Source: an uncultured Clostridium sp. (lineage in GTDB: Bacteria; Bacillota; Clostridia; TANB77; CAG-508). Taken from it: a stretch of DNA of 64,000 nt. The translations under genes and the position numbers were made by a program. Below, one piece after another: positions 6,197 through 12,459 of the stretch (its first letter is position 1; every line of letters begins with the position of its first letter). Location: positions 24,879 through 88,878 of the forward strand of contig CAZDPV010000002.1 of NCBI GenBank assembly GCA_964507565.1, read 5' to 3'. The notes under the pieces are model-generated. The model had not been told where the DNA came from, searched no databases, and saw only the letters and a list, made by a program, of their open reading frames with translations.

Positions 6197-6445
6197 ATGG
6201 AAACAATTTTGGCAGCAACATTAAATTGCATAGGAATTATGTTAGGACTAACATTCTTAGGATTTGGAATAGGTATAGGTATTTTAGGCTCAAAGGTTGC
6301 AGAGGCAGTTGGAAGAAATCCAGAAACAAAAAGTGATATCATTCATTCAGTAATGACAATACTAATTGTTTTAGCAATATTTTTACTATTACTATTTGCA
6401 TTTGTATTTTTACTATTATTCTATAATCCATTAACATTACAATAG
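6197..6445 (+). CDS. ATP synthase c-subunit-like proteolipid (two-helix hairpin) lacking the conserved ion-binding carboxylate
   Basis: RBS AAGGAGG is present. The 82-aa protein has a Gly-rich helix 1 ([15 protein letters not shown]) and a loop GRNPET that matches the atpE loop (A)RQPE. Helix 2 ([24 protein letters not shown]) has no Glu or Asp at the position of the canonical ALVEAL glutamate. Confidence 0.6.
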
Positions 6446-6468
6446 ATAGATAAAATATAAAAAGTCTA

Positions 6469-7320
6469 ATGCTATTTTACAGGAGAAAAAATATGATAAA
6501 ACTAATTATACCAGCAATAATAATGGAATTCTTAATGTTTGGATTTTCTATATATATTTTTGATAATCTCTCAAAAAGGATAAATAACAGAGTAAAAAAA
6601 TATTTTATAGACAAACTTCAAGATTATAATTATTTAATTGAAGAAAAAGCTAAAGAGCTTGAAAATTTGAGAAATTTGGTAGATAATGAAAATAATAAAA
6701 TAAAAAAACTTCAAGAAACGCCAGAAAGCACATTCTCAAAAACTATAGAGAGCAAGTTAAAGAAAATGAAGAAATTTAAAGAGGGAAAAATCAAACTAGT
6801 AGAAGAAGAAGATATAATTTATGATATACCAACTCCTGCATATAGGGAAGAGTCATTCTTTAAAAATTATAAAGAGCTAAAAAAGAACTTTAACGTGGAT
6901 ACACAAAATGTATTAGAGAAATTTGTTAAGGAACATAAGAATACAAAACAAGAAGATGAAGCATATAAAATTCTTACAGAATTCAGGTCTAAATTTAATC
7001 AAAATACAATTTATGATTGTTTAACATTAAATTCTAATAATCAATACAATTTAATGAAAGAAGTAATGTCCTCAAAAGAAAAAAACACAATTAACTTTGA
7101 GGAAAAATTTATGCAGGACAAGAAATTTACAATATTAAAATTATTAAATTATGTTGACGAGCTGATAAAAAAATACGATCCAACAATATATGTATATGTC
7201 GGATCAGACAGTGTTGATTATAATTATATTGAAAAGAACATCAAGACATATTTTTATAAAAACATGTCCGAAGGAATAATTATAAACTATAAAGGAAAAA
7301 TGTATGACTATAGTATATAG
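6469..7320 (+). CDS. F-type ATPase b-subunit-like protein (N-terminal TM plus long charged coiled coil), possibly a b/delta-like fusion
   Basis: One N-terminal TM helix (IKLIIPAIIMEFLMFGFSIYIF) is followed by a K/E-rich helical region. The gene sits at the atpF/atpH position between the c-like and alpha-like genes. At 283 aa it is longer than a typical b subunit. Confidence 0.4.
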   Translation: MLFYRRKNMIKLIIPAIIMEFLMFGFSIYIFDNLSKRINNRVKKYFIDKLQDYNYLIEEKAKELENLRNLVDNENNKIKKLQETPESTFSKTIESKLKKMKKFKEGKIKLVEEEDIIYDIPTPAYREESFFKNYKELKKNFNVDTQNVLEKFVKEHKNTKQEDEAYKILTEFRSKFNQNTIYDCLTLNSNNQYNLMKEVMSSKEKNTINFEEKFMQDKKFTILKLLNYVDELIKKYDPTIYVYVGSDSVDYNYIEKNIKTYFYKNMSEGIIINYKGKMYDYSI

Positions 7321-7346
7321 AAAATAATTAAGAAAAGGAAGAAAAA

Positions 7347-8696
7347 ATGGGTACACATATTGAGGATTTATTAAATAAAAAAATAGAGCAAATTAAGACA
7401 GAAGAAAATGTTTTTGATTCTGGAAATGTTACAAAAATAAAAGACTATATAATTGAAGTTTCCGGATTGGAAAACGTTAGGTTTTTTGAAAAAGTAATAA
7501 TCCAAGGTAAGGGAATGGGATATGTAAATCAAATAAATGAAAATTCCGTAATAATTGCATTGGTAAAGCAATATGCCCCAATCCAAATTGGAGATATTGT
7601 AAATTCAACAGGAGAATTATTTAAAGCAATATTTGCAAAAGAAGCAATGGGAAGAATAACAGATTTATTTGGCGTCGATTTATTAACAGGAAGAGCTTTT
7701 GAAAACTTTGAATATATAAATATAGAAAACAAAACTACTCCAATAATGGACAGGCGAGAAGTAAACAGACCTCTTAAAACTGGAATATCAGGAATAGACT
7801 TAATATACCCAATAGGAAAAGGACAAAGACAGTTAATAATAGGCGATAAAAAAACTGGAAAAACGCAAATAGCTCTTGACATAATTGCAAATCAAGCAAA
7901 TGTAAGGCGAGAACAAGGAGACAATATAGTTTGCATATACATAGCGGTAGGAAAAACAAAAAAAGAGATTAAGAATATTTATAATGAACTACTTAGAAGA
8001 AATGCATTATCATATACAATGATTTGTGCTGCAACTAATGATGATAAGCCACCTGTATTAAGTCTTATTCCTTATGTAGGATTATCTATTGCAGAAGAAT
8101 ATATGAAAATGAAAAAGGATGTAATTGTAATAATAGATGATTTAAAAAAACATGCACAAGCATATAGAGAGATTAGCTTAATATCGAATAAAACACCAGG
8201 AAGAGACGCATATCCATCTGATATTTTCTATACGCATGCTCGTTTGTTAGAGAAAGGTTGCCAATATAAAGACGGAGGTTCAATTACAATTTTACCTATA
8301 ATGGAAACAAAAGGTGGAGATATAACAGATTATATATCAACCAATATTATTTCAATAACTGATGGACAGCTTGTATTATCAGAAAAAAACTTTAGCGCAG
8401 GATTTAAACCGGCAATTGACTATGGAGTATCAGTATCTAGATTAGGTGGAGCAGTTCAAGAGGAAAGTGTAAAGAAATTAGGAGCAACAGTAAGAAGAAA
8501 ATTCTTAAGCTACTTGGAAATGAAAGAAGTATATGAGCTTGCGAATATGGATGAAATGAGTCCAGAATTAAGACAAAAAATGAAAGAAGGAGAAGCTATA
8601 CAAGAAGCATTAAAACAAGATAAATTTTCTCCTCTGTCAAATGCGGAAATAATTGATAAATTTAATATGTTAGGTGAGGATGCAAATGAAGATTAA
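7347..8696 (+). CDS. F1 ATPase alpha-subunit-like protein (divergent, 449 aa)
   Basis: The Walker A region GISGIDLIYPIGKGQRQLIIGDKKTGKTQIALDIIANQ aligns with AtpA [29 protein letters not shown]. The C-terminal segment YPSDIFYTHARLLE...ISITDGQLVLSEKNFSAGFKPAIDYGVSVSRLGGAVQ is co-linear with bovine/bacterial alpha. The Arg-finger position (GIRPAINVG) reads GFKPAIDYG, so Lys replaces Arg at codon 354 (nt 8406-8408). Confidence 0.8.
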   Translation: MGTHIEDLLNKKIEQIKTEENVFDSGNVTKIKDYIIEVSGLENVRFFEKVIIQGKGMGYVNQINENSVIIALVKQYAPIQIGDIVNSTGELFKAIFAKEAMGRITDLFGVDLLTGRAFENFEYINIENKTTPIMDRREVNRPLKTGISGIDLIYPIGKGQRQLIIGDKKTGKTQIALDIIANQANVRREQGDNIVCIYIAVGKTKKEIKNIYNELLRRNALSYTMICAATNDDKPPVLSLIPYVGLSIAEEYMKMKKDVIVIIDDLKKHAQAYREISLISNKTPGRDAYPSDIFYTHARLLEKGCQYKDGGSITILPIMETKGGDITDYISTNIISITDGQLVLSEKNFSAGFKPAIDYGVSVSRLGGAVQEESVKKLGATVRRKFLSYLEMKEVYELANMDEMSPELRQKMKEGEAIQEALKQDKFSPLSNAEIIDKFNMLGEDANED

Positions 8697-10828: not shown

Positions 10829-10865
10829 AATATACAAAACAAAATATTATATAGAGGTAAATTAG

Positions 10866-11159
10866 ATGTTTAATAACGAAAAAAGTGGAATAAAGAAGAT
10901 TACTGATTCAAAGGCTGATATTCTAGTAAAAATATTAAATTTAAAAAATGGACTAATAGAATATCCGGATGTACAATTTATTAGAATTTTAAGTGAAAAT
11001 TATAACTTAATAATAATGAAAGACTACTTGCCAGTAATAGGAGAAATAAAGGGAAAAGTCGAATTTGAAAGACCAGGAAGTACAATCAAATTAGAAAACA
11101 TAAATGGATACTATGTACATAAACATAATAAATTTGATTTATTTTTAAGGGGAGAATAA
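10866..11159 (+). CDS. F1 ATPase epsilon-subunit-like protein (N-terminal beta-sandwich only, 97 aa)
   Basis: It sits at the atpC position directly after the beta-like gene and is small, with mostly beta-strand-type sequence. The C-terminal two-helix hairpin of canonical epsilon is absent. Confidence 0.4.
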
Positions 11160-11174
11160 AAGAGGAGAGAATTT

Positions 11175-11744
11175 ATGATACAAACAATAATGTATAATGT
11201 TAGTAAAAGTGCAATTCCAATGTTAATATACTTAGGAATAATAGTATTTACTGGATTCCTCATAAATTTCTCAACAAAAAAATTTGATATTCATAAAAAA
11301 ACAGTTATGTTTGGAGGAATGTTAGTTAAACTTCATAGAAGGCAAATAATCTCAATAACTGCAGTTATGATAAGAACATTTCTAATAATATATGCATCTA
11401 TAAACTTTAAAGAAAATTTGGTATTGTACTTTACGATGATTATTATGGCAGATATAGTTTATATTTTTATGAATCCCAAAAAAATAGTATTTGAAATTAT
11501 AAATACTTCTGCACAGGGAATTTTAATATATATAATAAGTCTACTAAGCACATATCGAGTTGAAATTAGTGATGAACTATACGTAAAACTAATGCAAACA
11601 TTGCTTATTATTTTTATAATTGTGTATGCAATATACTTTTTATTTAAAAATTTTGAAGAAATAATATCAAAAAAATATAAAATAACAAAAAGAGAGAAAA
11701 AAGACCAAGAATTGAAGGGAGAATTAAATGAAAAAAATAGCTAA
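11175..11744 (+). CDS. Polytopic membrane protein (about 4-5 TM) of unknown function; possible stator/membrane component of the F1-like module
   Basis: Several hydrophobic segments are present. It lies immediately downstream of the epsilon-like gene with an RBS. It has no recognisable a-subunit LRLFGN/Arg motif. Confidence 0.4.
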   Translation: MIQTIMYNVSKSAIPMLIYLGIIVFTGFLINFSTKKFDIHKKTVMFGGMLVKLHRRQIISITAVMIRTFLIIYASINFKENLVLYFTMIIMADIVYIFMNPKKIVFEIINTSAQGILIYIISLLSTYRVEISDELYVKLMQTLLIIFIIVYAIYFLFKNFEEIISKKYKITKREKKDQELKGELNEKNS

Positions 11745-12459
11745 TAAAACATCACAAAATGCTTTAATAAAAGATATTGTCATAAAAATAGTATTAGTAT
11801 TATTACTTCTAGATGTAATATTTATTGCAATATACTATATCAAACAGCTAAATACAACAGAAGTAGAAAATCATAGCTTCTATCAATACTTAGGTGGTCA
11901 AAAGCAAAGTTATGCAGGAAGTATTAAAATAAGCAAAAACGGTGATATAACAGAATTAAAATGTAACGATATTGAAATCGAATTAGACTCAACACCAGTG
12001 TATTATTCAGATATAGAAAATACCGCAATATTACCAGAACAAATGTCAATTATTTATCCAAAAGAAAATGGAAAAACATATAGAACAACAAGATTCTCTA
12101 TATGCTCAATAAAAGACAAATCTGTGTATATTGAAATGAGTAAAAGCGAAAAATTAGTGCAAAATGCAATTCTATATGATGGAGATAATTTGTATTTTTT
12201 TATAGAGCAAACAAAGCTAATGATTGGTAATAAAGAGTATGATATTTCACCATTATCTTATGTATATGCAAAATACAATGAATATGTAGAAATTTATGAT
12301 AAGAAAAGTGATACATTTCAAGTGGTAGAATGTGCAAAAAAGAATGTAACAGCAAGCAATGGCTCATATATAATAGACTTAAACACAGGCAGTTTAAAAA
12401 ATGGAGAAAAAGAACAGCTATTACTTAAAAAGTTTAATTCATTAGAAATTTTAAAATAG
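11728..12459 (+). CDS. Membrane-anchored protein (N-terminal TM, extracytoplasmic domain), unknown function
   Basis: It overlaps the previous stop, suggesting translational coupling. TM helix is IVIKIVLVLLLLDVIFIAIYYI. Confidence 0.4.
   Translation: MKKIANKTSQNALIKDIVIKIVLVLLLLDVIFIAIYYIKQLNTTEVENHSFYQYLGGQKQSYAGSIKISKNGDITELKCNDIEIELDSTPVYYSDIENTAILPEQMSIIYPKENGKTYRTTRFSICSIKDKSVYIEMSKSEKLVQNAILYDGDNLYFFIEQTKLMIGNKEYDISPLSYVYAKYNEYVEIYDKKSDTFQVVECAKKNVTASNGSYIIDLNTGSLKNGEKEQLLLKKFNSLEILK

Follow-up and report, generated by a model that had tools for sequence, protein, structure and literature searches.

What does a set of ATP synthase-like genes do in the middle of an operon for giant surface proteins? 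The question is raised by a 64,000-nucleotide stretch of contig CAZDPV010000002.1 from an uncultured Clostridium sp. (hereafter the window), in which relatives of the F1Fo ATPase genes occupy positions 6197-12459. An earlier reading of this DNA (the initial annotation) had proposed that they encode an ATP-hydrolysing F1-like motor recruited to a cell-surface machine, a proposal favoured by the conserved motifs, the lost ion path and the synteny across 80 species described below. We lean, though not far past the midpoint, towards a fourth, previously undescribed type of F1-like ATPase: rotary, uncoupled from ions, and delivering mechanical work to a surface apparatus in walled, spore-forming bacteria. 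A literature search did not find a description of the cluster, and source databases give its proteins no names. The genes are arranged as follows:

1..4755, + strand: giant1, with the frame open from base 1 and the first 228 codons left of the window edge
4776..6182, + strand: p468, a single-pass membrane protein directly before c
6197..6445, + strand: c-like protein (Pfam ATP-synt_C, E 4.8e-8)
6493..7320, + strand: candidate b-delta fusion (AlphaFold2 (AF2) model and Foldseek); the open reading frame (ORF) opens at 6469, and gene callers and orthologues start at 6493
7347..8696, + strand: alpha-like protein (Pfam ATP-synt_ab, E 5.5e-71)
8686..9477, + strand: gamma-like protein of 263 amino acids (aa) (PF00231, E 1.3e-27); the ORF opens with a GTG at 8674, and the ATG at 8686 fits the orthologues
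9470..10828, + strand: beta-like protein, 452 aa (Pfam ATP-synt_ab, E 7.9e-69)
10866..11159, + strand: epsilon-like protein, 97 aa, directly 3' of beta (profile alignment to epsilon)
11175..11744, + strand: m189, about 5 transmembrane (TM) helices, at a conserved position after epsilon
11728..12459, + strand: m243, a single-pass N-in protein with ectodomain homology to giant1, p468 and giant2
12506..21562, + strand: giant2, 3018 aa, with TM helices at both ends, fn3-like modules and GLUG

The ORF positions and the overlaps at 8674/8696, 9470/9477 and 11728/11744 are those given in the initial annotation. Genes are tightly packed or overlapping across the operon, with no internal terminator. 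In this genome the operon begins after pgi, and a promoter with an extended -10 (11/12) lies 5' of giant1. Just 3' of giant2 there is a perfect 12/12 sigma-70 consensus promoter (21580-21608), followed by a T-box leader at 21621-21824 (55.9 bits, E 1.2e-11, under the Rfam gathering score of 93) with its terminator hairpin at 21820-21847, and by thrS from 21899. With this separate promoter and leader for thrS the operon ends on its right-hand side. All of its 10-11 genes together make up the functional unit: the proposed embedding among giant-protein genes was right, and the extent of 6197-12459 too small. General Pfam and NCBIfam scans of the neighbours gave only fn3 and GLUG and nothing of the MIB/MIP type, no search being aimed at MIB/MIP specifically. 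PADLOC and PHROGs searches gave no match, and hence no sign of a defence or phage origin.

The strongest observation is that this arrangement recurs. A family-specific gamma pattern, built from gamma set A2 (set A1 was too diverse), was scanned against one genome per GTDB species and matched in 337 species genomes; the locus statistics given here come from the best 80 of these, taken with 10 kb on either side and searched by tblastn with eleven window proteins. The order giant1-p468-c-b-delta-alpha-gamma-beta-epsilon-m189-m243(-giant2) was found in essentially all 80 loci, as far as the contigs reach. By tblastn giant1 was present in 68 of the 80 (the rest being cut by contig ends), p468 in 73, m243 in 76 and giant2 in 50; one subclade lacks giant2, with pgi-thrS directly 3' of m243 in loci L037 and L048. 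Recurrence of this order in 80 species-level genomes is far beyond chance, and the sequence matches indicate that the carriers number at least 80 species and probably several hundred. The c-like protein is the best conserved of the module (63-91% identity to the window across loci), followed by beta, alpha and gamma, with the others lower.

All 80 loci belong to metagenome-assembled genomes (MAGs) that come from human, chicken, rabbit, ruminant or horse guts or from anaerobic digesters, and one of them (L025) lies on a complete MAG chromosome, OZ006978.1. The labels (Clostridium sp. CAG:354, Candidatus Merdicola, Lachnospiraceae, Oscillospiraceae, Peptococcaceae and Family XIII, as well as Bacilli, Erysipelotrichaceae and 'Mollicutes') place the carriers in several deep Bacillota lineages. 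Two loci with other labels, L050 (labelled Muribaculaceae) and L065 (labelled Ignavibacteriales), are close kin of L056 (Bacillota SIG208), and mis-binned contigs or mislabelled MAGs are a more likely cause than transfer between phyla. In one MAG (Tb.RUG.141, JAEEIH01) the module is found on two contigs with slightly different sequences (L038 and L039), which could be paralogous copies or a strain mixture.

Is the catalytic head intact? Profile hidden Markov models of Pfam and NCBIfam identify c, alpha, gamma and beta in the canonical atp order. The alpha-like protein is an ATP-synt_ab protein of the alpha type, with the Walker A motif GDKKTGKT, a non-catalytic nucleotide site and the Arg finger; GDKKTGKT and SVSRLGG are conserved across the alpha proteins of the family (66 orthologues). 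The beta-like protein is of the beta type and carries DELSEQD, and its Walker A, GERSR, Walker B/IDNIYR and DELSEED-like loop are conserved in 74 orthologues. Across these 74 beta and 66 alpha proteins the catalytic motifs are invariant or nearly so, and all the alpha and beta motifs quoted in the initial annotation are present and conserved family-wide. In a sequence search of the PDB, canonical bacterial, mitochondrial and chloroplast chains scored 350-395 bits with beta and 270-326 bits with alpha, and the Mycoplasma mobile G1-ATPase chains 326 and 274 bits, respectively. Alpha residue 5 pairs with canonical alpha residue 8, so that the delta-binding N-terminal helix is kept, and the alpha C-terminal domain is truncated by about 55 aa (it aligns up to residue 432 of 502 in 2qe7_A), close to the 50 aa proposed earlier. 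For beta the suggested shortening of about 20 aa is the upper end of what we observe: it is 8-20 aa shorter than canonical chains, beginning at the beta-barrel and having no N-terminal extension. Gamma aligns to AtpG (hhalign probability 99.2%, E 2e-19) and forms a compact, distinct family: a search of 1.84 billion representative proteins gave 27 clusters at E <=1e-30, and canonical gammas showed up only near E 1e-10.

Some alpha genes depart from the common length. While about 445 aa is usual in the family, four loci of a 'Bacilli'-labelled subclade have alpha proteins of 562-1087 aa:

L054:6736-9999, long alpha ORF
L046:7336-9999, long alpha ORF
L067:3947-6889, long alpha ORF
L076:8311-9999, long alpha ORF

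An intein was considered and rejected for L054, the one of the four whose sequence was read: its extra 640 aa are an extremely acidic, repetitive, low-complexity C-terminal tail. In two MAGs alpha is split by frameshifts (L023:8640-8972 and L040:8634-8984), and in L040 beta is split as well (10847-11062); these could be assembly errors or true pseudogenes.

If the head is that of a rotary ATPase, the next question is what it turns. The c-like hairpin keeps the GxGxGxG motif of helix 1 and the R-N-P loop, and aligns to AtpE with an hhalign probability of 95.6%. As had been noticed at the outset, it has no carboxylate: helix 2 of the window protein has neither Asp nor Glu, the same holds for 62 of 63 distinct orthologues, and an Ala occupies the position of E. 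coli D61. An a subunit, also reported missing, was not recovered: neither with hhalign nor with Foldseek did any ORF of the window or of the 80 loci come out as AtpB-like. With no c carboxylate and no a subunit, rotation would be uncoupled from H+ or Na+ flow. For epsilon, b, delta and a, hhalign against single E. coli subunits was too insensitive, and these comparisons were redone with small multi-species reference alignments.

In place of an a subunit the operon has m189, with about 5 TM helices and a charged cytoplasmic tail. In all 12 of the examined loci where tblastn missed it, its position is taken by a multi-TM ORF of 174-206 aa (or by a fusion to m243 of 400-405 aa), and an ORF of at least 120 aa occupies the position in 74 of 78 loci. 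Its AF2 model has a predicted local distance difference test score (pLDDT) of 69.5, and Foldseek returned only generic helical bundles for it (E 1.7 or worse). Aligned with a subunits it gave an hhalign E of 0.67, and the a-subunit chains came up in Foldseek at E 6.8 or worse. The fold search of the model speaks neither for nor against a degenerate a subunit; m189 may replace subunit a in the stator.

A conserved polytopic protein at the place of subunit a, together with a c helix 2 that is uniformly hydrophobic and strictly conserved -including its outward-facing C-terminal LLFxNPL motif-, are the two features that speak for a transporter, in which the hydrophobic c-ring would work against m189 to carry some hydrophobic substrate of the surface layer (a lipid, for instance, or a wall precursor linked to one) across the membrane. 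We find this very unlikely. Such a machine is without precedent, Pfam and NCBIfam scans found no glycosyltransferase, flippase or lipid-handling domain in the operon, and a transporter would leave unexplained both the ectodomain shared by the surface proteins (see below) and their fixed link with fn3/GLUG giants.

A rotary motor also needs a stator, and here our results depart from the initial annotation, which had found no delta subunit. Searches of Pfam, NCBIfam and the PDB gave no sequence match for the b-like protein, and a profile of its family (b283) found nothing meaningful among PDB sequences. In its AF2 model, made with 32 homologues (pLDDT 82), a TM helix at the N terminus leads into a helix of roughly 70 residues; behind this come a disordered linker and then a helical bundle with a small sheet. 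In the Foldseek search of the PDB the top 34 matches to this model were all delta/OSCP chains, including the mycobacterial b-delta fusion, with probabilities of up to 0.96 over 145-170 aligned columns and E-values that are individually weak (0.017-1.8). In weak agreement, hhalign paired residues 238-267 with delta residues 141-170 (E 0.004). The gene lies between c and alpha, like atpF-atpH, and there is no second b gene at the locus. We read the b-like protein as a probable b-delta fusion, on the strength of the model, in which case the peripheral stalk would be full.

The 97-aa protein behind beta shows the pattern of the epsilon N-terminal domain in a 35-sequence alignment (A3). Its residues 16-93 align with epsilon 2-80 over 77 columns (hhalign E 0.002, against 0.1-0.6 for control subunits). 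The sole PDB match of the family profile is mitochondrial delta (E 0.58), the counterpart of bacterial epsilon, and Pfam scans of every member of this e97 family and of the m243 family gave nothing except one weak match, to PF02823. It consists of the N-terminal beta-sandwich only: the C-terminal inhibitory helices, whose lack in the window had been pointed out before, are absent in every family member, which fits a dedicated hydrolase. Taken at sequence level, every part needed for ATP to turn gamma-epsilon-c against a stator of alpha3beta3-delta-b appears to be present and under selection.

What would this rotation act upon? The flanking giants, first described as surface proteins of >1500 aa and 3018 aa, are membrane-anchored proteins, of 1754 aa upstream (cut by the window edge) and 3018 aa downstream. 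The full giant1 gene, seen in L001 and L086, encodes an N-terminal membrane anchor, a membrane-proximal domain and about a dozen fn3-like modules of about 100 aa, in which Pfam finds fn3. In p468, an N-in single-pass protein, the extracellular membrane-proximal domain is followed by one fn3-like module, and giant2 combines fn3-like modules with two blocks of GLUG repeats and has its second TM helix at the C terminus. All four proteins (giant1, p468, m243 and giant2) start with a run of positive charge and a single TM helix, from which the bulk of each is predicted to be extracellular. Profile-profile comparison shows that the membrane-proximal domain is common to the four (hhalign E 6.9e-9 for giant1-p468, 3.3e-6 for giant1-m243 and about 4e-5 for the other pairs). 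The shared domain, or m243 family, has no relative in the PDB or Pfam, and an NCBIfam scan of the giant proteins gave nothing. In three loci m189 and m243 are fused into one protein of 400-405 aa (L032:12486-13688, L035:12045-13256 and L057:12488-13705). Such fusions tie the membrane core and the ectodomain family together, and imply that the two proteins work as one unit.

The same proteins could be cargo instead. An F1-like motor might power the insertion, translocation or wall threading of the giants, in the manner of the F1-related FliI/FliJ ATPase of type III export, with no movement afterwards. The giants have N-terminal signal anchors and not cleavable signals, and giant2 has to insert TM helices at both ends. 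Relatives of F1 do drive protein export (NCBIfam similarity to FliI/SctN), and giant adhesins commonly have a chaperone or an export ATPase encoded in their operon. Yet in this superfamily export ATPases are homohexamers that have neither c-ring nor b-delta stalk nor epsilon, whereas the full rotor-stator set is found here, with c as its most conserved protein. A pore-forming component was not found, m189 having no more than about 5 TM helices, and it is Sec/YidC that normally deals with N-in signal anchors. We regard an assembly or export engine as unlikely, and continue to favour a motor acting on the finished surface proteins.

To which family, then, do these ATPases belong? Against the canonical NCBIfam models, window alpha scored 400 for atpA (cut-off 484) and 430 for a second alpha equivalog (cut-off 554), E. 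coli AtpA reaching 869; window beta passed atpD (TIGR01039) marginally, with 476.9 for a cut-off of 462.85 and 875 for E. coli AtpD. The Type 2 models gave 380 for alpha (MMOB1660, cut-off 600) and 387 for beta (MMOB1670, cut-off 850), compared to 412 and 495 for the E. coli subunits, and the Type 3 models 302 (MSC_0619, cut-off 520) and 412 (MSC_0618, cut-off 570), compared to 312 and 427. Both N-ATPase (alt_F1F0) models were failed as well (356 for 750 and 425 for 752), and the best FliI/YscN scores were 169 and 231 bits for cut-offs of at least 380, the operon having separate alpha and beta paralogues instead. From these scores window alpha and beta seem to have lost half of the canonical signal with no gain toward either mycoplasma type. 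The likeness to the M. mobile gliding motor and to the Mycoplasma Type 2 and 3 ATPases, put forward in the initial annotation, holds as a functional analogy and not as family membership.

We built a neighbour-joining (NJ) tree of alpha and beta with reciprocal rooting (415 columns, 200 bootstraps). As references it had E. coli, S. aureus (the sole Bacillota), Fusobacterium, Nonomuraea and two N-ATPases; clostridial, Type 2 and Type 3 sequences were not among them, and Ralstonia and Burkholderia 'plasmid' loci had no usable alpha or beta genes. The family was monophyletic in 200 of 200 bootstraps and fell outside the canonical and N-ATPase references in 199 of 200 for alpha and 150 of 200 for beta, never grouping with S. 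aureus (0/200) or with the N-ATPase references (0/200). Of the phylogenetic check proposed at the outset, the placement outside canonical and N-ATPase references was obtained, with S. aureus as its only Bacillota reference and no clostridial AtpA/AtpD. Kimura distances to canonical F1 are 1.25 for alpha and 1.07 for beta, close to the largest that the alignment permits, compared to 0.53 and 0.44 among canonical F1 of four phyla, and the internal divergence of the family equals that of canonical F1 across those four phyla.

These data bear on the simplest explanation, that the genes encode a housekeeping F-type ATPase or synthase with an odd c subunit and incidental surface-gene neighbours. Canonical gene order and the narrow pass of beta at atpD are what it would predict. 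Nor was a second ATPase found in the 10 kb flanks read on either side of each locus. The explanation is confronted, however, with the lack of the c carboxylate in 62 of 63 orthologues and of subunit a in all 80 loci, with an alpha that fails both alpha equivalog cut-offs and with scores about half of those of E. coli AtpA and AtpD. The proteins also lie outside the canonical and N-ATPase references and never with the Firmicute one (NJ), and synteny with giant1, p468, m189 and m243 is held across deep lineages. The sequence evidence argues strongly against a housekeeping enzyme, to which we give very little credence.

A last alternative is that nothing turns: the F1-like proteins would be a non-rotary scaffold, or a decaying remnant, that only anchors or organises the surface proteins, ATP turnover being irrelevant. 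The lost ion path and the shortened alpha, beta and epsilon can be read as decay, as can the frameshifted alpha of a few loci (L023 and L040). But Walker A, the catalytic Glu-Arg, Walker B, the Arg finger and the DELSEED loop are kept across a family as divergent as canonical F1 across phyla, and in nearly every locus none of the eight core genes is disrupted. We consider a scaffold or remnant close to negligible as an explanation.

How does the module compare with known systems? F1-like ATPases of the surface-motor kind have been stated to be specific to mycoplasmas (PMC3369863, PMC12994834), and the Type 2 (gliding) and Type 3 (MIB-MIP) enzymes, for which a like use of ATP hydrolysis has been proposed (for Type 3, in the reset of MIB-MIP), are the mechanistic precedent (PMC11864180, PMC12994834). 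With Type 2, the G1-ATPase of M. mobile gliding, the module shares alpha, beta and gamma subunits that derive from F1 and have their catalytic sites intact (PMC11864180, PMC3369863), the character of an ATP-burning motor and not a synthase, the tie to giant surface proteins (Gli349 and Gli521 in M. mobile) and a small beta-sandwich subunit beside the hexamer. In contrast, Type 2 lacks three things found in the window: a c subunit, a stalk gene of the b/delta type and the N-terminal helix of alpha. It has a 12-TM protein and a signal-peptide/2-TM protein where the window has the ~5-TM and single-pass proteins, and its beta has a long N-terminal extension for dimer and chain formation that window beta lacks. 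Gene order is also different, and the hosts are wall-less Mollicutes. Type 3, the F1-like X0 of MIB-MIP antibody cleavage (MSC_0618/0619; PMC12994834), shares with the module homologues of alpha, beta, gamma and epsilon and the presence of unrelated membrane proteins, all in a cluster that in Type 3 has seven genes. It has no c, b or alpha N-terminal helix, but keeps the epsilon C-terminal helices (PMC3369863). Its membrane part is a 12-TM protein and an 87-kDa protein with 2 TM helices, and its order (12-TM, small cytoplasmic, gamma, epsilon, 2-TM, alpha, beta) differs from ours (c, b-delta, alpha, gamma, beta, epsilon, 5-TM, 1-TM).

The resemblance to canonical F1Fo is in the order c, b(-delta), alpha, gamma, beta, epsilon and in the same rotor and stator parts; with the Mycobacterium F1Fo there is also the b-delta fusion (7njn and 7nkq chain d being among the Foldseek matches). 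What sets the module apart is that it has no a subunit, c carboxylate, epsilon C-terminal domain or second b, and that alpha is cut short in its C-terminal domain. N-ATPases, encoded in some genomes by a divergent F-type operon additional to the main enzyme, would resemble it on that point; they keep, however, subunit a and an ion-binding c, have the order atpDCQRBEFAG and are ion pumps. On this comparison the module would be a surface motor of the F1-like kind, distinct in its lineage, in its architecture (which keeps the c-ring and the b-delta stalk) and in its host type (walled Bacillota).

The host type follows from the rest of the window, which carries SpoIVA, a GH25 lysozyme, a class A penicillin-binding protein that has a PASTA domain, and FtsX together with two PcsB-like hydrolases. 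SpoIVA and the wall genes make the organism walled, as originally concluded, and endospore-forming. The region 48715-52189 encodes FtsX and then, in tandem, two PcsB-like proteins with a coiled coil and an M23 peptidase, which make up a duplicated pair of divisome hydrolases. Elsewhere in the window there are a 6S RNA gene (39007-39190, 90.7 bits), a cluster of three tRNAs (53745-54087) and two TTG-start ORFs without Pfam match (25113-27311, 732 aa, and 56721-57920, 399 aa). The ORF for IF-2 (33168-36662) has a GTG start and is unusually long, 1164 aa, with about 580 residues before the first IF2_N domain.

How might such a motor work? We propose that m189 and the b-delta helix would form the membrane stator, and that the hydrolysis-driven turning of the carboxylate-free c-ring would be handed across the membrane to a ring of the shared ectodomains, either by a cam-like action on them or by anchor helices travelling with the c-ring. 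The outcome would be a cyclic movement or conformational change of giant proteins reaching through the peptidoglycan wall, with surface motility, or force-dependent attachment to and release from host mucus, particles or other cells, as the likely output.

Several points weigh against this proposal. The route of the torque across the membrane is pure inference, and m189, which would stand at its centre, has no fold match and a model pLDDT of 69.5. The delta assignment leans on Foldseek E-values of 0.017-1.8, weak one by one though the list is uniform, and that of epsilon is statistically modest (E 0.002 and 0.58). The tree is an NJ tree with few references and no Type 2 or 3 sequences, and the basal placement may in part be long-branch attraction. 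A second ATP synthase was sought only within the 10 kb flanks of the loci. Absence of giant2 from one subclade means that not every surface partner is obligatory. Finally, all fetched carriers are uncultured MAGs, and the operon is known here from sequence alone.

A more specific version can be offered tentatively, and we would sooner doubt than assert it: a new ATP-powered motor in which giant fn3/GLUG filaments are driven, or moved as by a cam, through a Gram-positive wall by the carboxylate-free c-ring, giving surface motility or active adhesion to uncultured gut Bacillota with reduced genomes (such as CAG-354-like Clostridia and Bacilli- or 'Mollicutes'-labelled MAGs), and possibly representing the ancestral, walled-cell stage that gave rise to the mycoplasma Types 2 and 3.

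If the proposal of a surface motor is true, walled, spore-forming Firmicutes have an equivalent of the mycoplasma motors. Its architecture would be intermediate, with the rotor ring and the peripheral stalk kept and ion coupling lost, and this F1Fo-like frame would make the extracellular use of rotary torque testable in a simpler setting. There is a consequence for annotation too: because the beta protein passes TIGR01039, pipelines name it 'F0F1 ATP synthase subunit beta', and MAGs may be wrongly credited with an ATP synthase. For the uncultured gut clades that carry the operon, the motor would provide a functional lead to their giant surface proteins.

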